This document shows, one piece after another, positions 10,864 through 60,564 of a stretch of DNA of 64,000 bases (position 1 is its first letter; each line of letters begins with the position of its first letter). The stretch lies in NCBI GenBank assembly GCA_018061645.1, contig JAGOTT010000002.1, positions 23,842 through 87,841 of the forward strand. Direction: 5' to 3'. A model generated the notes under the pieces. The model made no database searches, had not been told where the DNA came from, and was given only the letters and a program-made list of their open reading frames with translations. Made by a program: the position numbers and the translations under genes. This stretch comes from Candidatus Moraniibacteriota bacterium (GTDB taxonomy: Bacteria > Patescibacteriota > Minisyncoccia > Moranbacterales > UBA1568).

Positions 10864-10986
10864 GATGGGAGAATCGCAGAATGAAGAATGATGATTGAAG
10901 AATTGAAGACTCCTATTTTAAAATCTGCAATCCACGATCCTCATTCATCATTCCGCGTAAACCAAAAACAGGCTAACAAAACGTCT

Positions 10987-18687: not shown

Positions 18688-18738
18688 ATGGTTTCAGGAT
18701 ATTTTCCATTTTGATATTTTCATTTTTCATTCCCCGTT

Positions 18739-20675: not shown

Positions 20676-20691
20676 GGTTTCGTGCTTAAAA

Positions 20692-21096: not shown

Positions 21097-21120
21097 AGAC
21101 ATTGCGGAGCAATGTAATTT

Positions 21121-21240
21121 CTAATAACCAAGCTCCAATTTCCAAACAATGATCAATCACCAAATTGCAAGAACCAAACGGAAACCGATTTGATTTTTGG
21201 AAATTGGAAATTATTTGGAAATTGGAATTTGGTTATTGGT
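21121..21240. repeat. AT-rich palindromic intergenic island (arms ~28 nt: aataaccaagctccaatttccaaacaat / revcomp)
   Basis: The left half is the reverse complement of the right half (ggaaattggaaattatttggaaattggaatttggttattgg). Related islands occur at 1441-1560, 13735-13800, 28441-28500, 46624-46739, 49205-49270 and 54531-54660. Confidence 0.6.
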
Positions 21241-21243
21241 CAT

Positions 21244-23448: not shown

Positions 23449-23492
23449 TGCAGGATGCATGATGCGCGAGGCGGAGATGTAAGATGCAACAG
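23439..23492. repeat. heptad array ATGATGC/AGGATGC/ATGATGC/GCGAGGC/GGAGATG/TAAGATGC beginning GATAAATGATG at the argS stop
   Basis: Same lead-in GATAAATGATG and GATGCA heptads occur at 50803-50839 after atpD. A partial E-element 3' module follows (23491-23522). Confidence 0.55.
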
Positions 23493-24776: not shown

Positions 24777-24960
24777 CGGACTAGACCCCGACGGGTATGC
24801 CCGTAACAGCGTGAAATGAGGCGATAGTCATCATCTTGGTCATTGGGACTTGGTGATCGGTTATTGCGAAGCGAAGGTGGTACCACGTCATCGACGTCCT
24901 TCTCCGTTATTCGGGGCGGGTCGTTTTTTATTGTCAGATGGTTTTATGGTCGGTATGGTT

Positions 24961-25341
24961 ATGGAACAGGAAAGATTTCTCACTCTTAATAAAATTACTG
25001 CTTACAAAAAATCGTTTGCACTTTCAAATGATATCTGGGGTCTTGTCGGGAAGTGGGATGAATTTTCAAAAAGGACGATAGGATCCCAATTTGTACGGGC
25101 TATTGATTCCGTTTCCGCAAACATTGCCGAAGGATTCGGGAGATATGAGAAGAAAGATAAAGTACAATTTTATAGGATAGCGCGTGGGTCCGCATATGAA
25201 TCGCTTGATTGGCTGGAAAAATCAAAAAGAAGAAAGCTTCTTTCTGAAAAAGAATATGGACGCATCTTCTTGATCCTGAAAGAGCTGCCGAAGGATATCA
25301 ATACGTTGATAAAATATACCAATGATCATCTGGCGACCTGA
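24961..25341 (+). CDS. four-helix-bundle protein (23S rRNA intervening-sequence protein / Avd-like family)
   Basis: ITAYKKSFALSNDIWGLV...ANIAEGFGRYEKKDKVQFYRIARGSAYESLDWLE. GC is ~40% against ~58% in the flanks. Start refined to ATG 24961. Confidence 0.6.
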   Translation: MEQERFLTLNKITAYKKSFALSNDIWGLVGKWDEFSKRTIGSQFVRAIDSVSANIAEGFGRYEKKDKVQFYRIARGSAYESLDWLEKSKRRKLLSEKEYGRIFLILKELPKDINTLIKYTNDHLAT

Positions 25342-25375
25342 CCATAAAACAATGTAACTATCTAGCCATACAACT

Positions 25376-28300
25376 ATGTTCAAAAAAGTCGATCCGAAGG
25401 TGAGTTTTCCGAAGATGGAGGAGGAAATCCTCAAATACTGGGAGGACAACAAGATATTCGAGAAGTCGGTGTCGAAGGACGCGCCGCAGGGCGATTTCGT
25501 GTTTTATGAAGGGCCGCCGACGGCGAATGGGAAGCCGGGGCTTCATCACGTGCTCGCGCGGTCGTTCAAGGACATCATCCCGCGATACAAGACGATGAAA
25601 GGCTACCGGGTGGCGCGCAAGGCGGGGTGGGATACGCACGGGCTCCCGGTTGAGCTTCAGGTGGAAAAGGCGCTCGGACTCAAGAATAAACAGGATATCG
25701 AGAATATCGTCCCGGGCGATGCACGAGCGAGCGTCATCGAATTCAATAGGCGGTGCAAAGAATCCGTATGGGAGTATCGTGATCTCTGGGAGAAATTGAC
25801 GCGACGTATGGGCTACTGGGTGGATATGGAGCATCCGTATGTCACCTATGAGAACAGCTACATCGAATCAGTCTGGTGGCAGATAGCGCAAATCGCCGAA
25901 CTCAAAGATGAGAAAGGTGAAAGTTTGCTGTATCGTGGGCATAAGGTTGTGCCGTATTGCTATCGCTGCGGCACCGCACTTTCATCGCATGAAGTCGCGC
26001 AGGGGTATCAGACCGTGAAGGACAATTCGGTGTATGTGAAATTCGAAGTCAAAGAGCAAGGAGCAGGGAGTAAGAAACAAGGAAAGACCTATCTGCTAGC
26101 ATGGACTACTACGCCTTGGACTTTGCCGGGGAATGTGGCTTTGGCGGTGAATCCGAGTATTGAGTACGTTATTCGAGAAATTTTGAAAGGAGATCATGCT
26201 GGAGAAACATATATTACCGCCTCTGAAAGGCAAGCTGATGTTTATGCGTATTCCGGGATATTTCCGAAAGATGAATTAAAAGAAGGGGAAAATCCTGATG
26301 CTTGGGCAAAGACGAGAATTATAACCGGGAAAGAGTTGATTGGCCTCAATTATGAACCACTCTACGAAACTGACGAAAAAAATAATCGAGAGGGATTATA
26401 CCGCGTGATTGCTGGAGATTTCGTGACGACCGATTCGGGGACGGGAGTTGTGCACATCGCGCCGGCGTTCGGGGAAGATGACGCCAACGTCGGTCGGGAG
26501 AACGGGTTGCCGACACTTCATACCGTGGATCTCGAGGGGAAAGTCTCCGCTGATGTTCCTGGGAAGGGGATCTCGGTCAAGAAGAAGAATGACAAGAACC
26601 GGTATGCGGTCGACGACCTGATCATCGCGGACCTCAAGGAATGCGGACTGCTGTTCAAGGAGGAGGAATACGAACACGAATATCCGTTCTGCTGGCGGTG
26701 CGACACACCACTCATCTACTTCGCGAAGCCGTCGTGGTTCATCGCGATGAGCGCGGTGCGCGAGGAGCTGATGAAGAATGCCGAGGCGATCAGCTGGGTT
26801 CCGGAAAATATCAAGGAAGGACGATTCGGGGAGTGGCTTCGCGGTATCCGGGACTGGGCGATCTCGCGCGACCGGTACTGGGGGACACCGATCCCGATCT
26901 GGGAATGTGAAGGACAGACAACGGGTAACAGTCAACAAAAAACAGGATGCGGAAAGAGAAAAGTCATTTCTTCCATCAAGGAGCTTGAGGAATTATCCGG
27001 ACAGAAGTTAGAAGATGTGCATAAGCCGTATATCGACGATGTCGAGTGGACGTGTGAGTGCGGCAAGGGAACGATGCGGCGGACGCCGGAGGTGCTCGAC
27101 GTGTGGTTCGATTCCGGTGCGATGCCTCTGGCGCAGTTTTCGTATCCGGCTGGGTCGACGGACGATGAGAAGGTGATGATCGAGACCGGGAAATCCTTCC
27201 CGGCGGGTTTCATCTCTGAGGCGGTCGATCAGACGCGTGGCTGGTTCTACACGCTCCATGCGATCGCGACACTGCTTCATAAAGCCGGGGCGGTGCCGAA
27301 GGGGAACGCGTACGACAACGTGATCTGTCTCGGACACGTGCTCGACGGACAGGGTAAGAAGATGTCGAAGTCGAAAGGGAACGTGATCGATCCGTTCAAG
27401 ATGTTCGACGAATACGGTGCCGACATGCTCCGGTGGGCGCTCTTTTCTGTCAATCAGCCGGGACTGCCGAAACGTTTCGATGCCAAAGTGATGCGTGACG
27501 TCCAGAACCGCGTGTTCCGGATGCTGTGGAACTCGTATTCGTTCTTCATGACGTATGCTTCGATTGATGATTGGAAACCGAAGGAAAGCGTCGGTAAGTC
27601 GGAGCACATCCTCGATCGTTGGATCTTGGCTGACTGCAACTATCTGGTGCATGAAGTGAAATATGATCTCGACCGGTATGACGTGTATTCGGCCACGCAG
27701 ACGATCGAGAAGTTCATAGATAATCTCTCTAACTGGTATATCCGTCGGAGTCGGAACCGGTTTTGGAAAAATGAGAACGATGACGACAAGGAACACGCCT
27801 ATCAGACGTTGTGTGGAGTTCTTTTGACTCTTTCGAAATTGATGGCCCCGTTCACGCCGTTTCTTTCGGAAGAGATTTATCGGAACCTGACAGGAGAAGA
27901 TTCGGTGCACCTCGCGAATTGGCCGGAGGAAACGGAGCTTGAGGGTGGGGAGCTGCGGAAAGAGATGTTGTCGGCTCGTCTGCTTGTGACGCAGGGACTT
28001 AAGATGCGCTCTGAGGCGGGAGTGAAAGTGCGACAGCCGCTTTCGGGATTCTCCATCGGAGATATCGAGTTGCGCGATGAACTGAAGGAAATTCTCGCGG
28101 ATGAACTGAATGTGAAAACAGTTGTCGGCGGTAAGCCGCTGGGACTCGATACCGAAATTACCCCCGAACTCAGGCTCGAAGGGCAGGCGCGGGAAATCAT
28201 CCGCGCGGTGCAGGAAGGACGAAAGAAGGCGGGGTTCAACGTGGAGGACCGCATCAGCCTCGGCTACGAGGGAATGTCAGCAGTCTTTGCTGACGAGATA

Positions 28301-31176: not shown

Positions 31177-32341
31177 CATGAATCGGATGCGATCACATTT
31201 CTTGGCAAACGAAGGCGTGTCGGTCGGTCGGACCGGTATGCTTCTGACGGGAAGCGGGGAGATGCGAACCCCGTTTTTCATGCCGGACGCGACCAAGGGA
31301 TCGGTCAAGGGGGTCTCCCTGTCAGACCTCGAAAGTGTCGGTGTCGGACCGATGGTCGTGAATACCTATCACCTTCAGCTTGCGCCCGGAGCGGATTTCA
31401 TCGGTGAAGCGGGCGGTGTTCATCGGTTCATGGGGTGGGATAAGCCTCTTCTTTCGGATTCCGGCGGATATCAGGTTTATTCGCTCATACATGGGAATCC
31501 GGATATGGGACGGATCACCGAGGATGGGGCGGAATTCCGCTCAGTGATCGACGGAGCGAAGCATTTCTTGACGCCGGAGCGGGCGGTTCAGATCCAATTC
31601 GATCTCGGTGTCGATATGATGGTATGTCTCGACGATCCGCGACCGAACGACGTATCCGAGGAGGAGATGGCGGCGTCCGTCGACCGGACGATCCGGTGGG
31701 CGAAGCGGTGCCGCGAGGAATATGATCGGCAGGTCGCCGAGAGAGAGCTTTCGGATGAGAGTCGGCCGCTTCTGTTCGGGGTGGTGCAGGGCGGGACGAG
31801 CGTGGGGTTACGGAGGAAGTGTGTCGCCGCTCTCGTCGATATCGGATTCGACGGATACGGGTTCGGTGGGCGACATGTGGATGTGGCGGGGAATTTTCTT
31901 GAGGAGATCATCCGGGAAACGGCGACAGCTATCCCTGAGGATAAACCGCGGTTTGCGCTCGGCATCGGGACGCCTGAGGACATAGTCCGTTGCTATCGTC
32001 TCGGCTGGGATATGTTCGACTGCGTTATCCCGACGCGCGAAGGCCGGCATGGCCGACTTTTCCGATGGAAAAATCAGGATACAGGATACAGGATACAGGA
32101 TACGAACCCCTCGGATTTCTACGAGACGATCAATATCAGTAACGAGCAGTTCAAAGAGGATTTTTCTCCGGTGGACGAGACATGCGATTGCGAGTTATGC
32201 CGGAATCATACGAAAGCGTACCTACGCCATCTTTTCCGTGTCGGGGACTCGCTCGGCGGTCGTCTCGCGTCGATTCATAATCTCCGTTTCTATATGCGGC
32301 TCATGGAGTCGCTTCGTCATCACGGTATTGACAAAAAGTAA
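31163..32341 (+). CDS. tgt: queuine tRNA-ribosyltransferase
   Basis: MRTPFFMPDATKG, LSDSGGYQV and the zinc site CDCELCRNH...H. Contains a (CAGGATA)4 tract. Confidence 0.85.
   Translation: MSFRNMNRMRSHFLANEGVSVGRTGMLLTGSGEMRTPFFMPDATKGSVKGVSLSDLESVGVGPMVVNTYHLQLAPGADFIGEAGGVHRFMGWDKPLLSDSGGYQVYSLIHGNPDMGRITEDGAEFRSVIDGAKHFLTPERAVQIQFDLGVDMMVCLDDPRPNDVSEEEMAASVDRTIRWAKRCREEYDRQVAERELSDESRPLLFGVVQGGTSVGLRRKCVAALVDIGFDGYGFGGRHVDVAGNFLEEIIRETATAIPEDKPRFALGIGTPEDIVRCYRLGWDMFDCVIPTREGRHGRLFRWKNQDTGYRIQDTNPSDFYETINISNEQFKEDFSPVDETCDCELCRNHTKAYLRHLFRVGDSLGGRLASIHNLRFYMRLMESLRHHGIDKK
32075..32102 (+). repeat. (CAGGATA)x4 heptanucleotide tract inside tgt
   Basis: aaatCAGGATACAGGATACAGGATACAGGATAcgaac, encoding KNQDTGYRIQDTN. 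Confidence 0.85.
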
Positions 32342-32382
32342 AAAGTATGCCATACTCTTCCGTTAATATCTAACGGGTGGGT

Positions 32383-32499
32383 ATGAGTGATTTCATGTTC
32401 GAGGTCGGTTTTTTCGGTCTTTGTTACGCGCTTATCTTCGGTGGAATATTCGGGGCCGCGTACAAGATGACCGAAATGATGCTTGTGATGATCGCCTGA
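32383..32499 (+). CDS. possible 38-aa hydrophobic peptide
   Basis: MSDFMFEVGFFGLCYALIFGGIFGAAYKMTEMMLVMIA. Followed by a terminator hairpin. Confidence 0.25.
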   Translation: MSDFMFEVGFFGLCYALIFGGIFGAAYKMTEMMLVMIA

Positions 32500-32510
32500 A
32501 GTTGGGATTT

Positions 32511-32600
32511 CCGGAAAACCTCCTCCTTGCGGGGGAGGTTTTCGTTTCCCAAAAAATGAAAACGCCGGCAGTTGCTTCTGCGCGGCGTTTTGCTTCAGGG
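32511..32600. terminator. pair of hairpins forming bidirectional terminators between convergent genes
   Basis: CCTCCtccttgcggGGGAGGtttt on plus. AAAACGCCGcgcagaagcaactgCCGGCGTTTTcatttttt on minus. Confidence 0.4.
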
Positions 32601-32738
32601 GATTTTTGGCGGTTTCTTTCGACGGTTCAATCCGATCGCGACGGACGCGAGAAGCGCCGCTGCCAAAATGACGCATATGGCCACGAGGATTATTGATCCA
32701 GGGTCGATGTCGATGATGTGCATGGCAAACTCCTTTGT

Positions 32739-33065
32739 TCAGGCTATCGCGTGGAAGGATCCCGAGCGTTTCGGAGCAGCCAATCTCGCCGCGTATTCTA
32801 TCTTGCCGAGATGTTCCGGATCATTTTTCAGAGTCGGAACCGTATCGGATGCGGCAAGCAGCACGTTCAGATACCGTTCCGCGAGCCGTTTTCCGGTTGG
32901 GTAGTCGCCAGGGTGGATATCGCGGTGCTCGTTCGTCCATCTGTTCAAGTCGGCTTCGGCCTCCGACAGATCGGCAAAAGGCCGTTCGCCTCCGGATCTG
33001 AATGCCTTGTAGAGGAGGAGCGCTAGTGCGGCCAGAACGATCAGGGGGATGCTGTCTGAGAGCAT
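32739..33065 (-). CDS. hypothetical membrane-anchored protein (108 aa)
   Basis: AAAGGAG SD 6 nt upstream of ATG 33065. N-terminal TM SIPLIVLAALALLLY. Terminator downstream. Confidence 0.45.
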   Translation of the reverse strand: MLSDSIPLIVLAALALLLYKAFRSGGERPFADLSEAEADLNRWTNEHRDIHPGDYPTGKRLAERYLNVLLAASDTVPTLKNDPEHLGKIEYAARLAAPKRSGSFHAIA

Positions 33066-33184
33066 GGGAGCTCCTTTCTTGTCAGGGGGTTGTTAAGGAA
33101 TGGTTTCTGTGTAGCGCGGAATCGTGTGTTTGTCCAGCGTTCTTTGACTTTCAGACCGGAAAAAGGTAGGGTTGAAGGGAAATA

Positions 33185-36622: not shown

Positions 36623-37656
36623 ATATGGATACGGATCGGATCGTCGAAATTGGAACCAGACTCATCTTTCGTGTCGCGTTTCTCGCGGTAGCGGTATATT
36701 TTCTGTATCTGCTTCGCGATATCGTGCTTATCGTGCTCCTTGCGGTGCTTACCGCCGCGGCGTTGTATCCGCTTATCGCACGGCTTGAGCGGTGGAGGCT
36801 TTCCCGGACCGGTGCGGTCGTCGCGGTCTACCTCGGATTTCTGACGATTATCGTTGCCGCAGTTGCGGTCTTCATCCCGCTCTTCATATCGGAAGTGAAG
36901 AACTTCGCATCCTCGTGGCCGATGTACGGAAACAAGCTTTCCGGCTTTCTTGCCGCGCTCGAATCATATTTTCAGTCTTTCGGGGTCGAGTTCAGTCGGG
37001 ATCAGTTTTTCGGTGAGATAGAATCAGGGATCTCGCAGAGCGCGGGGAATATCGTCGCGACGACCGTCGGAATCTTCTCGGGGCTCATTCATTTTCTCGG
37101 CTATTTCTTCCTTGCGCTGTATCTTTCGCTCGAGGAGGACGGTATCGAGAAATTCTTCCTCGCGCTCGCGCCGGATCAGTATCATGCGCGCGCGACGGAA
37201 TTCGCGGGAAAGATCCGCATCCGTGTCTCGCGCTGGCTCGGGGCGCAACTCCTGCTTATGGCGATCGTCTTCGTCATCTACTATATCGGACTGTCGCTTT
37301 TCGGTGTTCCGTATGCGCTTGCGATCGCCCTTTTCGGGGGACTGGTCGAGATCGTCCCGTATATCGGACCGATCTTGGCCGCGATTCCGGCGGTGCTCCT
37401 CGGCTTGCTCGAAGCGCCGGTCGTGGGATTCTCGGTACTCGCGTACTACACGGTCGCCCATCAGCTCGAAAGCCACATCATCGCGCCGCAGGTGATGAAA
37501 CATTCCGCGGGGCTCAACCCGGTCGTGCTCATCGTCGCGGTGCTGATCGGACTCGAGCTCGGAGGGGCGATCGGCGTGCTCCTCGCGGTGCCTGCCGCCA
37601 TGGTTATGGGGGTGTTCGTGGAAGACTTCATGGAGAAGAAGAAAGAGCGAATGTAG
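36619..37656 (+). CDS. AI-2E family transporter (second copy)
   Basis: Multi-TM protein with a conserved AI-2E C-terminal region. Confidence 0.65.
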   Translation: MNMDTDRIVEIGTRLIFRVAFLAVAVYFLYLLRDIVLIVLLAVLTAAALYPLIARLERWRLSRTGAVVAVYLGFLTIIVAAVAVFIPLFISEVKNFASSWPMYGNKLSGFLAALESYFQSFGVEFSRDQFFGEIESGISQSAGNIVATTVGIFSGLIHFLGYFFLALYLSLEEDGIEKFFLALAPDQYHARATEFAGKIRIRVSRWLGAQLLLMAIVFVIYYIGLSLFGVPYALAIALFGGLVEIVPYIGPILAAIPAVLLGLLEAPVVGFSVLAYYTVAHQLESHIIAPQVMKHSAGLNPVVLIVAVLIGLELGGAIGVLLAVPAAMVMGVFVEDFMEKKKERM

Positions 37657-37673
37657 AATATTGAATGTAGAAT

Positions 37674-38342
37674 ATGGGGACACTTTTCATCGTCGCGACG
37701 CCGATCGGAAATATGGAAGACATCACTCTCCGAGCTTTGAGAGTGCTGCGGGAATGCGACGCGGTGCTCGCGGAGGATACGCGCGTGACGAAAAAACTCC
37801 TTGCGAAATATGAGATCGAAAAACCTGCCGTCTCCTGTCATGAACACACGGACGAGGCGAAACTTCTCCGGCTCGTGGGAGAAATGAAGGAAGGGAAAAC
37901 ATTCGCGTACGTGACGGACGCCGGGACGCCGGGACTTTCGGATCCGGGAAACAAACTCGTCTCACTCGCAAGTGGTGCCGGTGTCGCGGTCTCGCCGATT
38001 CCCGGTGCCTCCGCTCTCGGAGCGATCGTGTCGGTCGCGGGGATCGACATGCGCGAATTCCTCTTTCTCGGGTTTCCGCCGCACAAGAAGGGCCGCGAGA
38101 CCTTTTTCAAGAAGGTGGTTGCGTCGGAACATCCGGTCGTCTACTATGAATCGCCGCACCGCGTGATGAAGAATCTCGAGCTGCTCGGGATGCTTGCATC
38201 GGAGTCGAAGGTCATCATTGGTCGCGAGCTTACCAAGATGTTCGAGGAAGTCATCCGCGGCACGGTCGGGGAAGCGACGGGATATTTCGAGGCGAATCCG
38301 TCCAAGGTGAAGGGGGAATTCGTCATCGTCGTGTATCGATAA
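37674..38342 (+). CDS. rsmI: 16S rRNA (cytidine1402-2'-O)-methyltransferase
   Basis: LFIVATPIGNMEDITLRALRVLRECDAVLAEDTR. Confidence 0.8.
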   Translation: MGTLFIVATPIGNMEDITLRALRVLRECDAVLAEDTRVTKKLLAKYEIEKPAVSCHEHTDEAKLLRLVGEMKEGKTFAYVTDAGTPGLSDPGNKLVSLASGAGVAVSPIPGASALGAIVSVAGIDMREFLFLGFPPHKKGRETFFKKVVASEHPVVYYESPHRVMKNLELLGMLASESKVIIGRELTKMFEEVIRGTVGEATGYFEANPSKVKGEFVIVVYR

Positions 38343-40673: not shown

Positions 40674-41612
40674 ATGATCGACATCCATACCCATCTTCAT
40701 TTCAAGGACTACGACGCGGATCGCGACGCGGTGATCGCGCGTGCGCGTGAAGCTGGGGTGGAGAAGATGATCCTGGTCGGGACGGACCTCGAATCGTCGC
40801 GCACGGCAATCGCACTTTCGGAGAAGCATGATTTTCTGTTCGCATCGGTCGGCATCCACCCTCACTTTTTCAACGAAGTTGAAAAAGAATTTCCAATTTC
40901 CAATTTCCAATTTCCAAACAAATCCCAATTTCCAATTTCCAAATTTCAAACGGAAATCAAAGGAATAACGGAGCTAGCGAAACATCCGAAGGTCGTGGCG
41001 ATCGGGGAGTGTGGGCTGGATTACTTCGTACGCAACGAGCAAGGAGCAACGAACAATGAGCAGGGAGGAGCAATCAGCAATCAACAGAAGAAAATCCAAG
41101 AAGAAGGATTTTTGGCACAGATGGAAATCGCGAAGGAACTCGGTCTGCCGCTCATCATCCACACTCGCCCCTCCGTTGGCACGATGGATGCCTACGAAGA
41201 TGTTTTCGAGATTCTGAAAAATCATTTATCACTCATCCCGCATCCCGCATCTGCTTTCATCCTCCACTGTTATCAGGGTGACACGGAAATCACGAAGAAA
41301 CTTCTCGGACTGCCGAACGCGCATTTTTCTTTTGCGGGAAGTGTCACCTATCCGGTAAAAAAATCGCTTATTGGAACGAAGGATGATTCCTCGGAGGTCG
41401 TAAAACTTGTACCGATGGAGCGAATTTTTGTCGAGACGGATTGCCCGTATCTTGCGCCGCAGCCGATGCGCGGGAGTCGCAACGAGCCGGCGTATGTCAC
41501 GATGACCGCGGAGCGGATGGCGGAAACGAAGGGGACGGATGTCAAGGAACTGGAATCGACCATAAACCGGGTCTTTTCAAGGGTTTTCGGAAGGAGTAAG
41601 ATGGAAACGTAA
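40674..41612 (+). CDS. TatD-family metal-dependent DNase with two low-complexity insertions
   Basis: IDIHTHLHF N-terminal histidine motif, then the conserved GECGLDY and further catalytic His/Asp motifs. Insertions FPISNFQFPNKSQFPISKFQ and NEQGATNNEQGGAISNQQ. Confidence 0.75.
   Translation: MIDIHTHLHFKDYDADRDAVIARAREAGVEKMILVGTDLESSRTAIALSEKHDFLFASVGIHPHFFNEVEKEFPISNFQFPNKSQFPISKFQTEIKGITELAKHPKVVAIGECGLDYFVRNEQGATNNEQGGAISNQQKKIQEEGFLAQMEIAKELGLPLIIHTRPSVGTMDAYEDVFEILKNHLSLIPHPASAFILHCYQGDTEITKKLLGLPNAHFSFAGSVTYPVKKSLIGTKDDSSEVVKLVPMERIFVETDCPYLAPQPMRGSRNEPAYVTMTAERMAETKGTDVKELESTINRVFSRVFGRSKMET
40891..40950 (+). repeat. CCAATTT heptamer tandem array (~9 units) in-frame inside tatD
   Basis: ttccaat ttccaat ttccaat ttccaaa caaatcc caatttc caatttc caaattt caaa. 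Confidence 0.85.
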
Positions 41613-45326: not shown

Positions 45327-45398
45327 AGATGAAAATTACGACGTGCGACGTGCGTATTTGGAAACAAGTAGGCAGTTCGCAATCCGTAATATAATTAA

Positions 45399-45635: not shown

Positions 45636-45637
45636 TC

Positions 45638-45737
45638 AGTTAACAGATAACAGAAAACAAAAAACAGGGAGCGCTGCTGTCTGTCATCGCATCTCTCCTG
45701 GGATTATTGTTGGCTGTTTATCGTTTTTTGTTGACTG
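45638..45737. repeat. inverted CAGNTAA heptamer arrays flanking the atpE-atpF spacer
   Basis: cagttaa cagataa cagaaaa caaaaaa cag ... ctgtttatcgttttttgttgactg. Confidence 0.55.
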
Positions 45738-45740
45738 TCT

Positions 45741-46229
45741 ATGGAAGCACTTGTGAAACTGGGTATCGACTGGAAACTGCTGCTCGCGCAGGCAGTGAAC
45801 TTTGTCGTGCTGCTCCTCGTCCTGCGTCGGTTCGCCTATCGTCCGATGCTCGAATTCCTCGACAAGCGCGCGGGAAGGATAGAGCAGGGGCTTAAGGACG
45901 CCGAAGCGGCCGGAAAGCGGCTCGAGGAGGCGGCGCGGAAGGAGGAAGAGCTTCTTGCTGCGGCGCGTGAAGAAGCGAAGGGTCTGGTCGCGAAGGCGGA
46001 AATCGCCGCTGAGAAGCGAGCCGAGGCGATCATGACGCAGGTTGCGGCGAAATCGGAAGCGATTTTCGAGGAAGCGAAGAAGCATGCGGAGGCGGAACGG
46101 GAAAAGATTTTCCGTGAAGCCAAGGAAGAGCTTGCGACGCTTGTGCTTTCGGCGACGGAGAAGATCCTCGGCGAGAAATCATCCGGCAAGGACAAGGAAA
46201 TCGCGGAACGGTTTTTGAACGAAAAGTGA
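45741..46229 (+). CDS. atpF: ATP synthase Fo subunit b
   Basis: N-terminal TM then a long charged helix. Confidence 0.8.
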   Translation: MEALVKLGIDWKLLLAQAVNFVVLLLVLRRFAYRPMLEFLDKRAGRIEQGLKDAEAAGKRLEEAARKEEELLAAAREEAKGLVAKAEIAAEKRAEAIMTQVAAKSEAIFEEAKKHAEAEREKIFREAKEELATLVLSATEKILGEKSSGKDKEIAERFLNEK

Positions 46230-46623: not shown

Positions 46624-46739
46624 TCATTTTCCAATTCCCAGTAAGTTTTCATTTGTACGAATTCCTGGTTATTTTTGGAAATTGTTTCATTGATGATTCA
46701 TTGGTAATTGGAAATTGGTAATTGGAAATTGTTTCAAGT
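46624..46739. repeat. AT-rich island with ggtaattggaaattg repeats (atpH-atpA spacer)
   Basis: cattggtaattggaaattggtaattggaaattg; same CCAATTTCC family as 21121-21240. Confidence 0.5.
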
Positions 46740-48242
46740 ATGGCAAACACACTCATCGAGGAGCTGAAGCGGCAGATCGAATCCTTCGATCACGAGACGA
46801 AGAAGGAGAAGATTGGCCGGGTGATGGAAACGGGCGACGGCGTCGCGCGCCTCTCCGGTCTCTCGGACGTCGCGTCGTCGGAGATCGTCGAATTCGGAAG
46901 TGGGGCGATCGGCGTCGCGCAGAACCTCGAGGAATCCGAAGTCGGTGTGATGATTCTTTCCGGCGCGGAGGGCGTGAAAGAGGGCGAGACGGCGAAGGGA
47001 ACAGGACGACTGCTTTCCATCCCGGTGTCGGAAGGTATCGTCGGCCGGGTCGTTGATCCGCTTGGGGTACCGCTCGACGGACGGGGCGAGATCGTGGGCG
47101 AGAAGAAGCTCATGCCGATAGAAAAAGTGGCCCCCGGAGTCATCGCGCGCGAGTCGGTCAAGAAACCGCTTCAGACCGGTATCAAGGCGATCGATGCGCT
47201 CATTCCCGTCGGTCGCGGGCAGCGTGAACTCATCATCGGTGATCGGCAGACCGGCAAGACCGCGGTCGCGATCGATACGATCGTGAACCAGAAGGGGCAG
47301 GATGTTATCTGTATCTACGTCGCCATCGGACAGAAGGAATCCAAGGTCGCGCGCATCATGGGTGAATTGTCGAAGCGTGGCGCGATGGACTACACGGTCG
47401 TCGTGGTCGCCGGCGCGTCGAAGCCGGCCGCACTCTCGTTTCTCGCGCCGTATGCGGGAGCGGCGATCGGTGAATATTTCATGGAACAGGGGAAGGATGT
47501 GCTCGTGATCTATGATGATCTTTCCAAGCATGCCTGGGCGTATCGGCAGATCGCGCTCATCCTGCGCCGTCCGCCGGGACGCGAGGCGTATCCGGGCGAT
47601 GTGTTCTACCTCCACTCGCGGCTTCTTGAGCGGAGCGCCAAACTCTCCGCGGAAGAAGGCGGTGGATCGCTCACCGCGCTTCCGATTATCGAGACGCAAG
47701 CGGGTGACGTGTCGGCATATATCCCGACGAACGTTATCTCGATCACCGACGGTCAGATTTATCTCGAAAGCGATCTCTTCTACAAGGGTATCCGCCCGGC
47801 ACTCAACGTCGGATTGTCGGTCTCGCGCGTGGGATCGGCGGCACAGATCAAGGCGATGAAGCAGGTCGCAGGAACCTTGCGGCTCGACCTGGCGCAGTTC
47901 CGCGAGATGGAAGCCTTCGCACAGTTCGGTTCCGACCTCGACGAAGGGACGCGGAAACTCATCGATCGCGGGCGTCGCGCGGTGGAGCTCCTGAAACAGC
48001 CGCAATACGCGCCGCTCAAAGTCGAAGAAGAAGTTGCGGTGCTCTATGCGCTCTCTCGCGGACATCTCGACACCGTTCCGGCGGAAAAGATCCGCGAGTG
48101 GGAGACGGGAGTACTCTCGTATCTCCGGACCGAAGGCGAGGACGCGCTTGCCGGTATCCGTGAGAAGAAGGAACTGACCGAGGAAGTGGAGAAGGTGTTG
48201 AAGGAAAGAATAGAAGAATTCAACAAACGATTTCAGATTTAA
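46740..48242 (+). CDS. atpA: ATP synthase F1 subunit alpha
   Basis: GDRQTGKT Walker A. Start refined to ATG 46740 ([10 protein letters not shown]). Confidence 0.9.
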
Positions 48243-48269
48243 GATTTCAGAGTGAAGATTGTCGGATCA

Positions 48270-48300
48270 AATCTGCAATCGAAAATCTGCAATCTGCAAT
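48270..48300. repeat. AATCTGC heptamer array
   Basis: aatctgc aatcgaa aatctgc aatctgc aattc. The reverse complement of the same heptamer occurs in-frame in leuS at 52236-52270. Confidence 0.6.
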
Positions 48301-49204: not shown

Positions 49205-49283
49205 TTTCAAGAAATTTCAAATGACAAATTCCAAAAACCAAACAAATCACAGATTCCAAATTCAAAAACACAAAATGTAGAAG

Positions 49284-49352
49284 TGTCATCCTGAGTGAAA
49301 CGAAGAATCCCGGTGTGAGAACGGGATTCCTCGACAGACTCGGAATGGCAAG
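49284..49352. repeat. E-element copy 2
   Basis: TGTCATCCTGAGtgaaaCGAAGAATCCCGgtgtgagaaCGGGATTCCTCGAcagaCTCGGAATGGCAA. The inner stem is perfect and shows compensatory changes relative to copy 1. Confidence 0.6.
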
Positions 49353-49386
49353 AAATGAAGTGAAGAGTTCTGACCTATCATTTTGA

Positions 49387-50891
<1,505 letters not shown>

Positions 50892-51438: not shown

Positions 51439-53859
51439 ATGGATAAGCGATATTCCCCGAAAACCATAGAGCCGAAATGGCAGAAAGAATGGGAAGAAAA
51501 AGGGATTTTCCGTCAGTATGACCGGAAGAAGAGATTCTACGTACTCGACATGTTCCCGTATCCGTCCGGAACCGGTCTTCATGTCGGTCATCCGAAAGGG
51601 TATATCGCGACCGATGTGGTGGCGCGGATGAAACAGCTACAGGGCTTCGGCGTGCTCCACCCGATGGGTTGGGATGCGTTCGGACTTCCGGCGGAACAGT
51701 TTGCCATTAAGAACAAGATGCATCCGAGTATCGCTGTGAAAGAGAATATCGGAACCTACAAGAAACAGATGGAAGCCATCGGGTTTTCCTATGATTGGGA
51801 GCGGGAAATCGATACGACGGACCCGGAGTATTACAGATGGACGCAGTGGATATTCCTCAAGATGTTCGAAAAGGGACTCGCGTACGAGTCATATGAGCCG
51901 ATCAACTGGTGTCCGTCGTGTCAGACGGGACTGGCGAACGAGGATCTCGAGGACGGTGCGTGCGAACGCTGCGGGACGCAGGTCGAGAAGAAGCCGATGC
52001 GGCAGTGGGTACTCAGGATGACCGCGTACGCGGATCGGTTGCTTGCCGATCTCGATCGGACGGAGCTTGATTGGGAAGAGCAGATCAAGGAACAACAGCG
52101 GAACTGGATCGGACGGAGCGAAGGAGCGGAAGTCGAATTCCAAATCACGAATTCCAAATCAAAGATAAGAGTCTTTACCACGAGAGTTGACACTATTTTC
52201 GGGTGCACGTATGTGGTCGTGGCGCCGGAACATAGAATAATTGCAGATTGCGAATTGCAGATTGTAAATTTCGGAGAGGTCGAAGAGTATCTCGAGAAGA
52301 CAAAGAAAAAGTCCGATCTCGAGCGGACAGAACTGAACAAGGAAAAAACCGGCGTGAAACTCGAAGGCATCGAAGCGGTGAATCCGTTCACAGGGGAATC
52401 CGTACCGGTGTACGTTGCCGATTACGTACTCGGCTCATATGGCACGGGCGCCGTCATGGCAGTCCCGGCGCATGATGAGCGTGATTTCGAGTTCGCGAAG
52501 AAGTACGGACTTGATATAAGCACGGTGGTTTCCGGCGGAGATCAATCCGATGAAGTCGCATTTACCGAGGATGGGATGCTTGTAAACTCTGGTGATTTTT
52601 CTGGACTTTCATCCGCGGAGGCGAGGGAAAAGATGATGGCATGGATCGAGGAGAAAGGACTCGGCAGGAAGTCGGTGAAATACAAGATGCGGGACTGGAC
52701 GTTTTCGCGCCAACGATACTGGGGCGAACCGATCCCGATCGTTCATTGCGAGGAATGTGGCGCGGTGCCGGTCAAGGAGTCGGATCTTCCGGTGCGGTTG
52801 CCGGATGTGGAGTCGTATGAGCCGACGGGAACGGGAGAATCGCCGCTTGCGGATATAGATGAGTGGGTGAATGTGCCGTGCCCGAAGTGTGGGGGCGCAG
52901 GGAAGCGGGAGACGAATACGATGCCGCAGTGGGCGGGGTCGTGCTGGTATTACCTTCGGTTCATCGATCCGAAGAATGGCGGAGCGTTCGTCGGGGAAGA
53001 ATTGGAAAGGGAATGGATGCCGGTCGATCTTTATGTGGGTGGCGCGGAGCATGCGACGCGACATCTCCTCTATGCCAGATTCTGGCATAAGTTTCTCTTC
53101 GATATCGGTGTCGTTTCGACCGATGAGCCGTTCAAGAGGCTTGTTCACGTCGGACTCATCAATGCATCCGATGGGCGGAAGATGTCGAAGCGATGGGGGA
53201 ATGTGGTGAATCCGGACGATATCATCAGGGATTTCGGCGCGGACGCGCTCAGGCTCTATGAAATGTTCATGGGACCGTTCACGCAGAACATCGCCTGGAA
53301 TACCGAAGGACTCGTCGGGACGCGGCGATTCCTGGATAAGATATGGAAGCTTTCCGAGAAAGTGACAAGGAACAAGGAGAGAGGAACGAGTGGGAACGAA
53401 AAACTTGAAGCGGCTGTTCATCGGACGATCAGAAAGGTGACGGAAGATGTCGACGATTTCAAGTTCAATACCGCGATCAGCGCTCTTATGATTCTTGCGA
53501 ATGCGATGGAGAAGGAGAATCATGTATCGGACATCGTGTATCGGGAATTTCTTATCCTCCTCTCTCCCTTCGCGCCGCACATCGCGGAAGAACTCTGGGA
53601 AAGATCGGGAAACGAACAGTCGATCTTCCTTGAGAAATGGCCGCAGTACGACCCGGAGAAGGCGGTCGAAATGCAGGTGACAATCGCGGTTTCAGTGAAC
53701 GGGAAAGTGCGTGATATCATCACAGTCGCGAGGGATGCTTCGGAGGAAACGCTTCGATCGAAGGCGCTTTCGAATGAAAAGGTGCGGAAATATTTGGAGG
53801 AGAAGGAACCGAAAAAAGTTATCGTCGTTCCCGGTCGCATCGTCAATATCGTCATCTGA
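51439..53859 (+). CDS. leuS: leucine--tRNA ligase
   Basis: PYPSGTGLHVGH (HIGH) and KMSKRWGN motifs. Start refined to MDKRYSPKTIEPKWQ. In-frame heptamer arrays at 52141-52168 and 52236-52270. Confidence 0.9.
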   Translation: MDKRYSPKTIEPKWQKEWEEKGIFRQYDRKKRFYVLDMFPYPSGTGLHVGHPKGYIATDVVARMKQLQGFGVLHPMGWDAFGLPAEQFAIKNKMHPSIAVKENIGTYKKQMEAIGFSYDWEREIDTTDPEYYRWTQWIFLKMFEKGLAYESYEPINWCPSCQTGLANEDLEDGACERCGTQVEKKPMRQWVLRMTAYADRLLADLDRTELDWEEQIKEQQRNWIGRSEGAEVEFQITNSKSKIRVFTTRVDTIFGCTYVVVAPEHRIIADCELQIVNFGEVEEYLEKTKKKSDLERTELNKEKTGVKLEGIEAVNPFTGESVPVYVADYVLGSYGTGAVMAVPAHDERDFEFAKKYGLDISTVVSGGDQSDEVAFTEDGMLVNSGDFSGLSSAEAREKMMAWIEEKGLGRKSVKYKMRDWTFSRQRYWGEPIPIVHCEECGAVPVKESDLPVRLPDVESYEPTGTGESPLADIDEWVNVPCPKCGGAGKRETNTMPQWAGSCWYYLRFIDPKNGGAFVGEELEREWMPVDLYVGGAEHATRHLLYARFWHKFLFDIGVVSTDEPFKRLVHVGLINASDGRKMSKRWGNVVNPDDIIRDFGADALRLYEMFMGPFTQNIAWNTEGLVGTRRFLDKIWKLSEKVTRNKERGTSGNEKLEAAVHRTIRKVTEDVDDFKFNTAISALMILANAMEKENHVSDIVYREFLILLSPFAPHIAEELWERSGNEQSIFLEKWPQYDPEKAVEMQVTIAVSVNGKVRDIITVARDASEETLRSKALSNEKVRKYLEEKEPKKVIVVPGRIVNIVI

Positions 53860-56612: not shown

Positions 56613-56690
56613 TCAGGGAACAATGAACAGGGAACAGAACCCATTCGTTCCCTCTTCGGATGTTCGTTGCTCCCTGTTTATTGTTCGCTG
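56613..56690. promoter_or_regulatory. 78-nt imperfect palindrome forming the entire parA 5' leader (candidate operator)
   Basis: Left gaacaatgaacagggaacagaac and right gttcgttgctccctgtttattgttc are reverse complements. The palindrome ends 3 nt before ATG 56694. Confidence 0.45.
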
Positions 56691-56693: not shown

Positions 56694-57464
56694 ATGGCTA
56701 AGATCGTCGCATTCGTGAACCAGAAGGGCGGGGTAGGGAAAACCACGACGACGATCAACGTCGCCCGGTATTTGGCGCATTTCGGGAAAAAAGTACTCCT
56801 CGTCGATCTTGATCCCCAGGGGAACGCCTCGTCGGGCCTGGGCATCGACCCACGGGGGCTCGAGAAGAATCTCTATCATGCCATGATCGGCGGGCTTTCG
56901 CCGCGCGAAATCATCCTCTCGACCGATACCGAAAATCTCCATATCATTCCTGCGGCGCAGGACTTGGCCGGCGCGGAGATCGAGATGGTACATATCGACG
57001 CACGTGAATTCCGGCTCTATTCCGTTCTGCGGCAGGTACGGACGTTCTATGATTATATCCTTATCGATTCTCCACCGTCACTCGGGCTCCTCACGGTCAA
57101 CGGGCTCGTGGCGAGCGACGAGGTCGTGATACCGGTGCAGGCGGAATACTATGCACTCGAAGGACTCTCGCAGCTCCTGGGGACGGTGGAACTCGTTCGG
57201 GAGCGACTTCAGCCGAATCTCAAGATCATGGGGGCGCTCATCACGCTCTATGATCGGCGGAACCGCCTTGCACGGCAGGTCGTGTCGGAAGTGCAGAAAC
57301 ATTTTCCGGGGCCGGTGTTCGAGACGATCGTGCCGCGTTCCGTCCGACTCGCCGAAGCCCCTTCGTATGGGAAGTCCATCCTTGATTTCGACGCGTTCTC
57401 CAAAGGCGCCCGCGCGTACAAGGCGGTCGCTCGCGAAATCATTTCCCGGGAGAATGAAAAATGA
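56694..57464 (+). CDS. parA: chromosome partitioning ATPase ParA/Soj
   Basis: MAKIVAFVNQKGGVGKTTTT deviant Walker A. Confidence 0.85.
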   Translation: MAKIVAFVNQKGGVGKTTTTINVARYLAHFGKKVLLVDLDPQGNASSGLGIDPRGLEKNLYHAMIGGLSPREIILSTDTENLHIIPAAQDLAGAEIEMVHIDAREFRLYSVLRQVRTFYDYILIDSPPSLGLLTVNGLVASDEVVIPVQAEYYALEGLSQLLGTVELVRERLQPNLKIMGALITLYDRRNRLARQVVSEVQKHFPGPVFETIVPRSVRLAEAPSYGKSILDFDAFSKGARAYKAVAREIISRENEK

Positions 57465-57547
57465 AAATATCAAAAATCAAAATTACGGTGTACAATGTGA
57501 TCGGTATGGAAGATTTTCCATTTTGACGTTTCCATTTTGATTTCCCT

Positions 57548-58627: not shown

Positions 58628-58655
58628 TTGCAAAAAAATCAAATCGTGGGATAAT
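58628..58655 (+). promoter_or_regulatory. promoter TTGCAA-16-TGgGATAAT (copy 2)
   Basis: Identical ~50-nt block as at 10812-10863. Confidence 0.45.
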
Positions 58656-58722
58656 GCATCCAGGAAACAGTCAACAAGTAACAGTTAACAGAAACCGTAT
58701 GCATACGAAACAATCGTTCGCG

Positions 58723-60069
58723 ATGAAAGTCTCATACTGGCTCAAGGTCGTCTCCCTGGGACTTATCCTCGGATTCGGACTCCAGTTCGCCCAAGCCTGG
58801 ACCGCTCCGACCCAAGCCCCTCCCGGAGGCAACGTCTCGGGACCGATCACCGTCGGCGATGTCGGACAGAGTAAGGCTGGAAACCTCGCGCTCAACACGA
58901 GCGGGGCATACGCGAACGGACTCCTCGTCCCGAACGGCAATGTCGGTATCGGCACCGCGGCTCCGAACAGGAAACTTCACGTGCTCTTCAATAATCCGAA
59001 TGCCGACGGAACCAACGGACAGCTTGTCGTCGAGAATATCGCCGACAGCGCGAACGGTGTCGCCGCGGTGAATATACGTGTCGGGAACGCCGGCGCGATG
59101 GGCAATCTTCAGTTCAGCGTCGGAAACTGGCAGGGAAGCGCGAACAAGGCGGCATTCGGCTATGACCACGGAGGACAGGAATTCGAATTCTGGACCCTGA
59201 ACGGATCCTGGTCGCCGAAACTCTTCATCGGTCAGACGGGAAACCTCGCCGCCAACGGCAACATCACGTCCGGCACCAGTGTTACCGCGCCGCAGTTCTG
59301 CATCGGCGCAAGCTGTATCAACAGCTGGCCGAGCGGAGGTGGTTCCGGTGATAATCTCGGCAACCACACCGCGACGCAGAATCTCAATATGGGAGGCTTC
59401 AATGTCTCCAGTGCCGGAGCCGTCTACGCCAACACCTTCTATGACAACAACAACGTCGGCTACTATCTCGATCCCGCAAGTACGAGTTTCGTCAATGGCA
59501 TCGCCGCTGTCGGGAACTACACCACGACGAACGGGAATATCACCACGACGAACGGTGACTTGTCCGGCAAGAGGGTGTGCATAAACGGCGTGTGCCAGGG
59601 GAGTTGGCCGGCCGGCGGGTCGGGGACGGTGACATCGCTCTCCGCGGGGAACGGTATCACGCTTTCCCCGAATCCGATCGTGGGAGCGGGGACGATTTCC
59701 TGGAACCATACCGCGACGCAGAACCTCGACATGAATACCACGAACAGGATCATCAACCTCGCAACTCCGACAGGCAACAATGATGCGGCGACGAAGGGGT
59801 ATGTGGATGGAAAAGTCGGCAGTTGGGCAATTTTTTCCAATATACCTACGGGAGCGGTGGCTGCCGGTTGTAGCCAATTTCATAGTGTAGCATCCTCACG
59901 ATATTCCGCTGAATGCTGGGGAGGGGCGAGTGTGAATATCGTCACTTGCGGAACTACGCTAACGACGTCAAATTGTCCAGCAGGTACGACAAGAAAAGGA
60001 AACATGACTTCGTCAGTAGACGGTGGCTTCTGTGATGTAAGAGGTGCTTTCAGCTGTATAAAAAATTAG
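58723..60069 (+). CDS. glycine/asparagine-rich secreted protein (tail-fibre-like beta-helix adhesin?), intact paralogue
   Basis: Sec signal MKVSYWLKVVSLGLILGFGLQFAQA/W. Repeated GNVGIGTAAP-type motifs, C-terminal Cys-rich region and ...NLATPTGNNDAATKGYVD motif. The first ATG at 58654 lies inside the -10 box, so the start was moved to 58723 (or 58699). Confidence 0.65.
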   Translation: MKVSYWLKVVSLGLILGFGLQFAQAWTAPTQAPPGGNVSGPITVGDVGQSKAGNLALNTSGAYANGLLVPNGNVGIGTAAPNRKLHVLFNNPNADGTNGQLVVENIADSANGVAAVNIRVGNAGAMGNLQFSVGNWQGSANKAAFGYDHGGQEFEFWTLNGSWSPKLFIGQTGNLAANGNITSGTSVTAPQFCIGASCINSWPSGGGSGDNLGNHTATQNLNMGGFNVSSAGAVYANTFYDNNNVGYYLDPASTSFVNGIAAVGNYTTTNGNITTTNGDLSGKRVCINGVCQGSWPAGGSGTVTSLSAGNGITLSPNPIVGAGTISWNHTATQNLDMNTTNRIINLATPTGNNDAATKGYVDGKVGSWAIFSNIPTGAVAAGCSQFHSVASSRYSAECWGGASVNIVTCGTTLTTSNCPAGTTRKGNMTSSVDGGFCDVRGAFSCIKN

Positions 60070-60189: not shown

Positions 60190-60564
60190 ATGTTCGTAGA
60201 CAGACCACTCGGAGACCCGCTCAAGCGGAAGCAGTTGAAATGGCTCCTTCTCGTGCTCGGCGTCATCATGATTATCGCGATACTCCTTCTCTCGTTTCGT
60301 CTTATGAAAGAGCCGGTGCAGGATCCGGCGCAGCCGATGTCTCCCGATAAGGGTACCGCGCAGGGAAAGCCGACCCAGGAGGATGTCCAGAAACAACTCG
60401 AAATGCTTGCCAAGGAAGACGCCGCGAACTCCGCTCCGAAGCCGACCCAGGAGGAAATCCAAAAGCAGCTCGAAGCGCTTGCTGCCGAGGATGCCAAGAA
60501 TCCCGCTCCGAAGCCGACCCAGGAGGAGATAGCGAAGCAGCTCGAGGCCCTTTCCAAACAATAA
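60190..60564 (+). CDS. small single-TM protein with 24-aa tandem repeats (PKPTQEEIQKQLEALAAEDAKNPA)
   Basis: N-terminal TM. The repeats are encoded by 72-nt tandem units at 60370, 60442 and 60514. Confidence 0.5.
   Translation: MFVDRPLGDPLKRKQLKWLLLVLGVIMIIAILLLSFRLMKEPVQDPAQPMSPDKGTAQGKPTQEDVQKQLEMLAKEDAANSAPKPTQEEIQKQLEALAAEDAKNPAPKPTQEEIAKQLEALSKQ
60370..60561 (+). repeat. 72-nt in-frame tandem repeat, ~2.7 copies
   Basis: The unit ccgacccaggagga...gctccgaag repeats with ~80% identity. Confidence 0.75.

Follow-up and report, generated by a model that had tools for sequence, protein, structure and literature searches.

The stretch of DNA analysed here, referred to as the window, comprises 64,000 nucleotides (64 kb) of contig JAGOTT010000002.1 from a Candidatus Moraniibacteriota bacterium. 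The system in question is a set of tandem heptanucleotide arrays, which lie both in its spacers and, in frame, within conserved genes. The window has a G+C content of ~54%, holds most of its genes on the + strand and encodes a tmRNA and one tRNA. NCBIfam and Pfam agree with the gene names given in a preliminary description made from the sequence alone, namely tatD, argS, ileS, leuS, tgt, mutY and the atp operon, and they also identify infC, smpB, recO, glyS, metG, parA and parB. TatD and IleS match proteins of a Candidatus Moranbacteria metagenome-assembled genome at NCBI with 100% identity. Among species-representative genomes, the best matches of LeuS are Patescibacteria, at no more than 66% identity. 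The comparisons cover the window and five short syntenic relatives (L161-L165), which were retrieved via exact-protein look-ups. Solved structures served as the length reference for TatD, Tgt and IleS (8c8w for IleS), and LeuS was aligned among 45 sequences, with 40 orthologues compared for length.

Period-7 arrays in genes and spacers

The recurrence of tandem 7-nt arrays across the window, claimed in the preliminary description, is confirmed by shuffle nulls and motif counts. Six arrays of period 7 reach a score of at least 12, against 0.0 in 30 shuffles preserving local (100-nt) composition; at this threshold period 14 also gives 6, and periods 5, 6 and 8-13 give 0-1. When exact 7-mer recurrences are counted per lag against a codon shuffle, they amount to 78 at lag 7 (5.0±3.5 in the shuffle), 84 at lag 14 (3.6±2.1) and 46 at lag 21 (11.8±5.0), and the lag spectrum peaks nowhere else. 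The motif AACANNN x3 has 20 matches where 0.11 are expected, and CAAATNN x3 has 38 where 1.9 are expected. The shuffles leave this excess standing when it is set against a chance origin in AT-rich low-complexity DNA, an objection that the preliminary description had raised against itself. The array flagged at the outset, in tatD (40674-41612; TIGR00010), is recovered by Tandem Repeats Finder at 40888-40947 with period 7, 8.9 copies and a score of 69, and over 40888-40950 it reads AATTTCC x4.3, AAACAAATC, then CCAATTT, CCAATTT, CCAAATT and TCAAA. Every other array position listed there likewise has period-7 or period-14 structure, from perfect to degenerate.

Of the 30 arrays catalogued, 14 lie within the 55.5 kb of genes, and the 8.4 kb of spacers contain or overlap 16, at a density ~7.5x higher; most arrays have 4-5 units and the longest has 9. 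They belong to the families CAAATNN/CCAATTT, AACAGNN, ATTGCAG/GATTTCA, GATGCAG, ATCACTC and CAGGATA, each present at several loci and in both orientations. The CAAATNN element of ~63 nt (9 units), with its CCAAACAAATC core, recurs in TatD (window, L161 and L162), in Tgt of L162 and in two spacers. Copies of AACAGNN have ~5 units, in which AACA is conserved as an anchor and the other three positions are free, and ATTGCAG copies with common edges are found in leuS of the window, in argS of L164 and in one spacer arm of the window. Perfect runs lie inside diverged arrays (AATTTCC x4, CAGGATA x4, a 14-mer x2 and, in L164, (ATTGCAG)4.5), and perfect arrays containing G and C are present (CAGGATA, GATGCAG, CGACGTG); the AACAGNN arrays of argS and ileS are degenerate, with a lag-7 identity of 0.45-0.56. 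It follows from the sequence itself that the three frames of any heptamer array all encode one and the same peptide of 7-residue period, which is why similar peptides recur, such as xPNKSQ, IIADCxLQI and NNEQGAT.

Genic arrays are single and in frame, and the loops of housekeeping enzymes in which they lie are poorly conserved (Table 1). The same heptamer families are common to spacers and to in-frame gene sites, including those of three aminoacyl-tRNA synthetases, as had been proposed. In the AlphaFold model of TatD (mean predicted local distance difference test score, pLDDT, of 88), the sole segments below 50 are residues 77-86 and 123-130, which correspond to the two inserts and form loops between secondary-structure elements of the barrel. 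The Tgt insertion contains a perfect (CAGGATA)4.1 run at 32075-32103. At IleS site 2 (residues ~511-526) the insert turns a conserved CxxC into C-x13-C and is patchy, being present in only some relatives at 65-78% identity; at IleS site 1 the array stands in for a PGQKIGDFTTD-type segment of most relatives, at nearly equal length. ArgS has no gap relative to solved homologues at either of its sites, and the LeuS arrays entail zero length change with respect to the 40 orthologues. The term 'insertion', applied to all these arrays in the preliminary description, is apt for TatD, Tgt and IleS site 2 and, against the solved structure, for the 7 aa of IleS site 1, but not for LeuS and ArgS or for IleS site 1 among relatives, where length changes little or not at all. 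Two sites alone, TatD site 1 (63 nt) and IleS site 1 (21 nt relative to the PDB structure), accord with its suggestion that arrays are tolerated because 21 nt equal 7 codons; elsewhere the net change is 33, 45 or 51 nt. It is selection on net length, rather than a three-unit rule, that maintains the frame. The copy reported at 58665 is a real array, but it lies at the 5' end of ORF (open reading frame) 58654-60069 and not clearly in a spacer, as had been stated. The preliminary description mentions neither the inverted pairing of spacer arrays nor the shared edges and similar unit counts of the dispersed copies.

The two kinds of site differ in the presence of an inverted partner, which was sought up to 150 nt away with 100 shuffles per array. 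None of 13 arrays internal to coding sequences has a significant one, and pairing between two LeuS arrays, or among other genic arrays, was rejected for this reason. In 12 of the 16 spacer or edge arrays, by contrast, the inverted partner is unmatched in 100 shuffles. Ten spacer elements consist of two inverted arrays, with arms of 16-54 nt that are 71-88% complementary and loops of 9-75 nt, and make imperfect hairpins of ~60-140 nt. The RNA fold z-score lies between -2.1 and -5.9 in eight of the ten; the other two, at 18624-18731 and 57458-57538, fold no better than shuffled sequence and are homologous copies of each other by alignment. In many cases the left arm extends over the stop codon of the preceding gene, and 2-11 nt separate the end of the right arm from the following start codon. 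The atp operon contains four of the hairpins, all situated after a promoter-like site (44297) and ahead of a canonical terminator (51352). The same inverted-array architecture is found in L163 and in three other loci (L073, L052 and L131).

Two roles considered for these hairpins were rejected. As intrinsic terminators they find no support, since none scored as terminator-like and the GC-rich terminator after atpC looks different. A role in replacing Shine-Dalgarno motifs or in marking translational coupling offers no contrast, such motifs being nearly missing within 14 nt of the start codons of almost all window genes. Around the hairpins, it was also observed that the tmRNA (20691-21096, - strand) adjoins smpB (21244-21684, - strand), and that a MITE-like palindrome (GTCATCCTGAGTGAAACGAAGAATCCCGG...CTCGGAATGGCAAG; MITE, miniature inverted-repeat transposable element) lies at 49275-49375, beside the CAAATNN array of the atpG-atpD spacer, and is nearly identical in L163.

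Table 1. Heptamer arrays and array hairpins of the window, with positions counted from its first nucleotide.
Feature	Position	Strand	Description
TatD site 1	40885-40952	+	63-nt CCAATTT/CAAATNN element, 9 units, core CCAAACAAATC; encodes EFPISNFQFPNKSQFPISKFQ; 21-22 aa insertion
TatD site 2	41030-41085	+	GCAANGA/AGCAATC array; encodes NEQGATNNEQGGAISN; ~15-aa insertion
TatD site 3	41221-41251	+	ATCACTC/ATCCCGC array; encodes HLSLIPHPA; other families there in relatives
Tgt insertion	32072-32125	+	encodes NQDTGYRIQDTNPSD; 17 aa beyond solved Tgt; CAAATNN element here in L162
IleS site 1	26046-26085	+	CAAGGAG-type array; encodes KEQGAGSKKQGK; 7 aa relative to 8c8w
IleS site 2	26912-26950	+	AACAGNN element; encodes GQTTGNSQQKTG; 11-13 aa insertion (11 aa relative to 8c8w)
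ArgS site 1	21979-22015	+	AACAGNN, 5 units; encodes SQQITNNNQQG; conserved in L165
ArgS site 2	22381-22425	+	AACAGNN element; encodes QRLTVNNEQKT
LeuS site 1	52134-52161	+	perfect 14-mer x2 (CGAATTCCAAATCA); encodes EFQITNSKS
LeuS site 2	52236-52270	+	ATTGCAG-family element; encodes IIADCELQIVN
LeuS site 3	53519-53544	+	weak 14-nt periodicity (HVSDIVYR); L003 array in matching loop
MutY	5978-6008	+	CAAGNNA array; encodes QETRDKKQDT
AACAGNN, 5 units	58662-58696	+	5' end of ORF 58654-60069; coding, or upstream of true start
Hairpin	1430-1543		two inverted CAAATNN arrays, 49-nt arms; z -2.2
Hairpin	10875-10957		AGAATGA arrays; z -4.4
Hairpin	18624-18731		AAAATGA/ATTTTCC family; left arm in 3' end of HAD hydrolase gene; z -0.27, not below shuffles
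Hairpin	21111-21249		139 nt, 54-nt arms, CCAATTT family; tmRNA-smpB spacer; z -5.9
Hairpin	45636-45742		inverted AACAGNN arrays; between atp c-subunit and b-subunit genes; z -3.4
Hairpin	46625-46731		CCAATTT/ATTGGAA family; atpH-atpA spacer; z -2.6
Hairpin	48229-48300		GATTTCA and AATCTGC arrays; across atpA stop, ends 4 nt before atpG start; z -2.1
Hairpin	50803-50888		GATGCAN, GGTTTCC x2, ATCACTC; across atpD stop, ends 3 nt before atpC start; z -3.2
Hairpin	56614-56676		AACAGGG arrays, upstream of parA; z -4.5
Hairpin	57458-57538		between parA and parB; AAAATGA/ATTTTCC family; z -0.2
Single CAAATNN element	49205-49270	+	~63 nt, CCAAACAAATC core; atpG-atpD spacer; L163 copy 25 nt shorter
GATGCAG array	23447-23470	+	overlaps argS stop codon; identical in L164
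CGACGTG x2	45339-45354	+	directly after atp a-subunit gene; identical in L163
GAATGTAGAATATT x2	37649-37675	+	across stop codon and next start codon

Turnover of the arrays among relatives

The flanks of the compared sites are 75-99% identical between the window and its relatives. At TatD site 1, the window carries (CCAATTT)9, L161 and L162 carry CAAATNN and L163 carries (GATGCAG); at the Tgt site, the (CAGGATA)4 of the window and L164 corresponds to a CAAATNN element in L162. The AACAGNN element at ArgS site 2 is matched in L164 by (ATTGCAG)4.5 of identical length, and at ArgS site 1, where the window and L165 have AACAGNN, L164 has a 109-nt MITE-like insert. In the tmRNA-smpB spacer, the hairpin of the window is replaced in L164 by a gene with a GIY-YIG domain (2890-3135 of L164), its flanks being 94-99% identical, and several atp spacers with heptamer hairpins in the window hold other families or non-repeat sequence in L163. 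The 18624 hairpin (L164) and the GATTTCA array at the 3' end of atpA are identical between the window and relatives. Orthologous spacer arrays of the window and L163 differ by 9 and 25 nt, neither of which corresponds to a whole number of heptamers; the length differences at coding sites are all multiples of three, and the host genes are intact in the window.

A similar picture emerges from 36 TatD homologues (52-80% identity), in which three to four hypervariable positions hold heptamer-type peptides, MITE-type peptides (GSRVKPGMT, LCHSREGGNP) or nothing. The array positions are hot spots, where close relatives have an array from a different family, a palindrome of the MITE-like kind, a small gene or sequence without repeats. 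The preliminary description had left room for an ancestral feature, for which we find no support: the solved homologues of TatD, Tgt and IleS are without the inserts and the presence of the latter is patchy within Moranbacteria, and these inserts are not ancestral but lineage-specific and labile. The four LeuS loops that hold arrays in the window do so in the distant Patescibacteria L029 and L003 as well.

Further observations concern what else is lodged at such positions. In-frame peptides of a palindrome type occur in relatives (LVSCHPELVEGS...RRLARNDN, GSRVKPGMT, LCHSREGGNP and PARIA(T/P)RS(V/G)AGG), their carriers being argS of L164 (~4000-4110), tatD of L162, metG of L163 and the TatD homologues P0003, P0007, P0024, P0052, P0056, P0075 and P0097; they look like translated MITE-like repeats at heptamer hot spots. 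A small gene of the 23S_rRNA_IVP family (PF05635) lies just upstream of ileS in the window (24850-25341) and is bracketed by a 22-nt inverted repeat (24930-24951 / 25340-25361). Its homologue in L163 (12238-12657) lies between atpD and atpC and is flanked by inverted GGAATNA heptamer arrays. This gene resembles, in its arrangement, a putative cargo in the loop of a hairpin element, at sites that differ between the window and L163. In L163, metG (601-2309) is represented by two overlapping ORFs, for which a frameshift or a sequencing error is possible, and contains extra in-frame segments. A 29-aa difference in MetG length with respect to L162 was considered as a possible array and rejected, its cause being a difference in start-codon calling.

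Beyond these relatives, a period-7 excess is found in Moranbacteria or Moraniibacteriota (L003, L073 and L163), in Gribaldobacteria (L063), in other Patescibacteria (L029, L051 and L052) and in three metagenome contigs; the loci of Elusimicrobia and Clostridia that the same query retrieved show none. Longer arrays occur there as well. L051 has a GAATGTT/GAATATC array of ~15 units (109 nt) at 6156-6264, and L131 has an inverted pair, AACATTC x6.7 / TGTTGAA x5.6, at 16043-16159, with the same unit, so that one family is common to two unrelated contigs. A literature search of incomplete coverage found no published heptamer repeats in the candidate phyla radiation or in Moranbacteria.

A few other features of the window were recorded. 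The mechanical ORF taken as infC (20127-20879) overlaps the tmRNA, and the true start of infC must therefore be further downstream. Between tgt and glyS, 840 nt (32342-33184) are without an ORF of at least 120 aa, the relatives having small called ORFs only. Repeats of other periods comprise a 72-nt tandem repeat of 2.7 copies at 60367-60557, in a region where ORFs of both strands overlap and Pfam finds no match, and a 21-nt repeat (TTTNGNI) at 59511-59555, within ORF 58654-60069.

Likeness to known repeat systems

The STRR heptanucleotides of cyanobacteria, with which the preliminary description had compared the arrays, have the units CCCCAGT, TTGGTCA and CAACAGT (STRR1-3). In the window, CCCCAGT x2 has one match with two mismatches, which is not above chance, and CAACAGT x2 is matched at best with 2 mismatches, within an argS copy of AACAGNN, the one family that loosely resembles this unit; TTGGTCA was not searched. 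STRR sequences were described in heterocystous cyanobacteria (Mazel et al, 1990, as cited in PMC4692102). The window arrays are like them in having tandem 7-nt units, several families, many and mostly intergenic loci and no established function; they are unlike them in phylum and units, and in that they are short, usually paired in hairpins and frequent in conserved enzymes. The expression 'STRR-like' is a fair functional analogy, but it does not extend to the sequence, as the STRR1 unit, and equally the TAACTGA unit of Beggiatoa, is absent from the window; by sequence, the arrays are an analogue of STRR rather than a member.

In bacteria rich in simple sequence repeats (SSRs), heptamers were found to be the commonest long SSR, for which polymerase slippage was proposed, and coding regions usually carry units in multiples of three (Mrazek et al, 2007, as reported in PMC4679880 and PMC4692102). 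The leading genomes for SSRs of 5-11 nt in that work, in the form given in PMC4679880, belong to Burkholderia, cyanobacteria, actinobacteria and Xanthomonas, with no mention there of Patescibacteria. Like these long SSRs, the window arrays are longer than composition predicts and favour period 7 over neighbouring periods; unlike them, 7-nt units lie in frame inside essential genes. Comparable, too, are the direct TAACTGA repeats described by MacGregor (2015, PMC4679880) from marine Beggiatoaceae, cyanobacteria and Bacteroidetes: heptamers of 2-6 copies lie just upstream of starts or overlap upstream stops, Shine-Dalgarno motifs are rare and a few copies are in ORFs. That system, however, has one dominant unit and almost no inverted pairs, and its ORF copies lie at protein ends or in hypothetical proteins. 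The GGGAATC / GGGGA(T/C)T heptamers of Xanthomonas and Nostoc (Rehm et al, 2015, PMC4692102) are likewise intergenic, include some inverted pairs and vary in length and sequence at one spacer among close relatives, but they are G-rich and quadruplex-forming, whereas the window units are rich in A, C and T, have no G-runs and are also coding.

Other short elements resemble the arrays in location more than in structure. The Rickettsia palindromic elements (Ogata et al, 2000, in the account given by PMC10969869) are short repeats that lie in frame in unrelated housekeeping genes at fold-compatible positions, and in spacers. TatD, Tgt and IleS of the window share this in-frame placement but not the palindrome or the size, since the Rickettsia elements are ~150 bp long, palindromic and non-periodic and the coding copies of the window are 28-63 nt long, heptamer-periodic and not self-complementary. 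As compared with MITEs, the spacer elements have inverted arms over 63-139 nt, but these arms are tandem arrays and not defined termini. Small dispersed repeats are reported from cyanobacteria by Elhai and colleagues (2008). Together with the REP, BIME and REPIN elements (PMC3116915), they have in common with the window short dispersed hairpins in operon spacers, many copies and a suspected mobility. A REPIN is nevertheless tied to a RAYT transposase and a conserved palindrome of 20-40 nt, whereas the arms here are tandem heptamers and neither such a gene nor such a head motif was seen in the window.

Origin of the arrays and what they mean for Patescibacteria

We propose, with moderate confidence, that the arrays are heptanucleotide SSRs of the STRR or 'long SSR' kind, generated by slippage, spread among permissive sites by copying or exchange, and sorted by selection. 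Units would arise, and arrays would stay homogeneous, through replication slippage with a 7-nt register, as in the polymerase-footprint idea of Mrazek et al (2007). Whole arrays would then be copied among permissive sites through recombination or template switching; alternatively, strains may exchange alleles by homologous recombination in the conserved flanks. The survivors in genes would be those that are stop-free, have a net length that is a multiple of three and lie within loops, and the survivors in spacers would take the hairpin form, since folding brings neighbouring cistrons close. It is speculated that stems of at least 20 bp could serve as targets of double-strand-specific RNases or as barriers to exonucleases. 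The perfect unit runs within diverged arrays are expected from ongoing slippage, and, together with the differences in array length, they may point to it.

Several observations sit uneasily with slippage. Unrelated loci and genomes share non-periodic edges, cores and unit counts, which slippage in situ fails to explain; the cases in point are the CCAAACAAATC core and the A[AT]AATTGCAG...CAGATTT edges of the ATTGCAG family. Nor does it account for the AACAGNN family, in which AACA is kept as an anchor beside three free positions. The 14-nt duplication in LeuS and the family swap in ArgS are both length-neutral, which would call either for two compensating events in an essential gene or for copying in one step, something that slippage does not give. 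In addition, changes of copy number by single units are presumed, and any function of the hairpins, none of which is terminator-like, is putative. The shared edges and counts, the anchor and the length-neutral replacements leave room for a mobile element or a templated-copying mechanism. With regard to the latter, it may be speculated, as a rather unlikely case, that Patescibacteria have a dedicated copying process in a 7-nt register, by polymerase realignment, template switching or recombination on heptamer arrays. Were this rather remote proposal correct, permissive sequence would be overwritten length-neutrally with cassettes of ~5 units, families would be swapped and inverted pairs would be built in spacers. 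The swap at ArgS site 2, the LeuS duplication, the occupation of LeuS loops in distant lineages and the shared edges and counts could be cited for it, if only tentatively. If true, such copying would differ from ordinary microsatellite slippage and represent a mutational or mobile system of a new kind.

Among the rival explanations, the one that we take most seriously, while holding it to be unlikely, is that the arrays are miniature mobile elements of a MITE-, REPIN- or SDR-like kind (SDR, small dispersed repeat), mobilised in trans by an enzyme whose gene lies elsewhere in the genome, with the periodicity being a property of the element and not a trace of slippage. The dispersed families with common edges, cores and unit counts, the hairpin with inverted arms in spacers and the presence, absence or replacement of arrays at sites with 93-99% identical flanks would all agree with it, as would the fact that the hot spots also take MITE-like palindromes, the GIY-YIG gene of L164 and the array-bracketed 23S_rRNA_IVP gene of L163. 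Against it, no transposase, RAYT or reverse transcriptase is found among the Pfam-scanned ORFs of the window, target-site duplications were not noticed at the edges by eye, no systematic search having been made, the genic copies are single arms without self-complementarity, and the perfect unit runs and apparent differences in unit number would favour slippage. A doubtful alternative, to which we give less weight still, sees selected cis-acting RNA elements in the spacer hairpins, and perhaps in the arrays themselves, either as processing or stability signals of operons or as arrays bound by a protein whose footprint is 7 nt, for instance one with a cold-shock or S1 domain; a 7-nt-footprint protein has already been hypothesised for the TAACTGA repeats of Beggiatoaceae (PMC4679880), which provides a precedent. 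The four hairpins between the promoter-like site and the terminator of the atp operon, arms that begin at or near a stop codon and end shortly before the next start, the identity of CGACGTG x2, of the GATTTCA array at the atpA 3' end and of the 18624 hairpin (L164) in relatives, and the AACA anchor kept at 7-nt spacing would be understandable on this basis. However, turnover is rapid, with unrelated families swapping at one spacer among close relatives, the variety of unit sequences speaks against one sequence-specific binder, the same families lie in coding loops where no RNA role is needed, and two of the ten hairpins fold no better than shuffles.

The remaining two explanations carry far less weight. 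That the arrays are contingency loci for phase variation, switching genes on and off by frameshift, is suggested by the fact that 7 is not a multiple of three, so that a change of one unit shifts the frame, and that several arrays overlap stops or starts. We nevertheless consider this highly improbable, as the hosts are essential single-copy housekeeping genes that are intact, relatives are in frame at the compared sites, length differences are always multiples of three and the arrays are short and mostly imperfect. Least credible of all, and close to negligible, is the notion of a by-product of AT-rich low complexity, codon usage or assembly error. Some arrays are indeed A/T-rich and degenerate, as in argS and ileS, but the shuffles yield ~0-5 events as against the 78-84 counted in the window, no lag other than 7, 14 and 21 is prominent and perfect arrays containing G and C exist; as for assembly error, the arrays are far shorter than reads and recur in independent NCBI, JGI and Logan assemblies.

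Heptamer repeats have been known from cyanobacteria since 1990 and from other bacteria since 2007, and there is no accepted account of their origin or function. The arrays described here extend them to the candidate phyla radiation, a large branch of tiny genomes in which non-coding bases are conspicuous. One set of families acts both as hairpin filler of operon spacers and as in-frame loop insert in essential enzymes, aminoacyl-tRNA synthetases included, which accounts in part for the variable length and the odd low-complexity segments of the host proteins. Such segments are a potential source of error in alignment, phylogeny, gene calling and structure prediction for these genomes, and they could be of use as strain markers. 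The cassette-like turnover at hot spots among close relatives offers a concrete system for the study of how period-7 repeats originate and spread.

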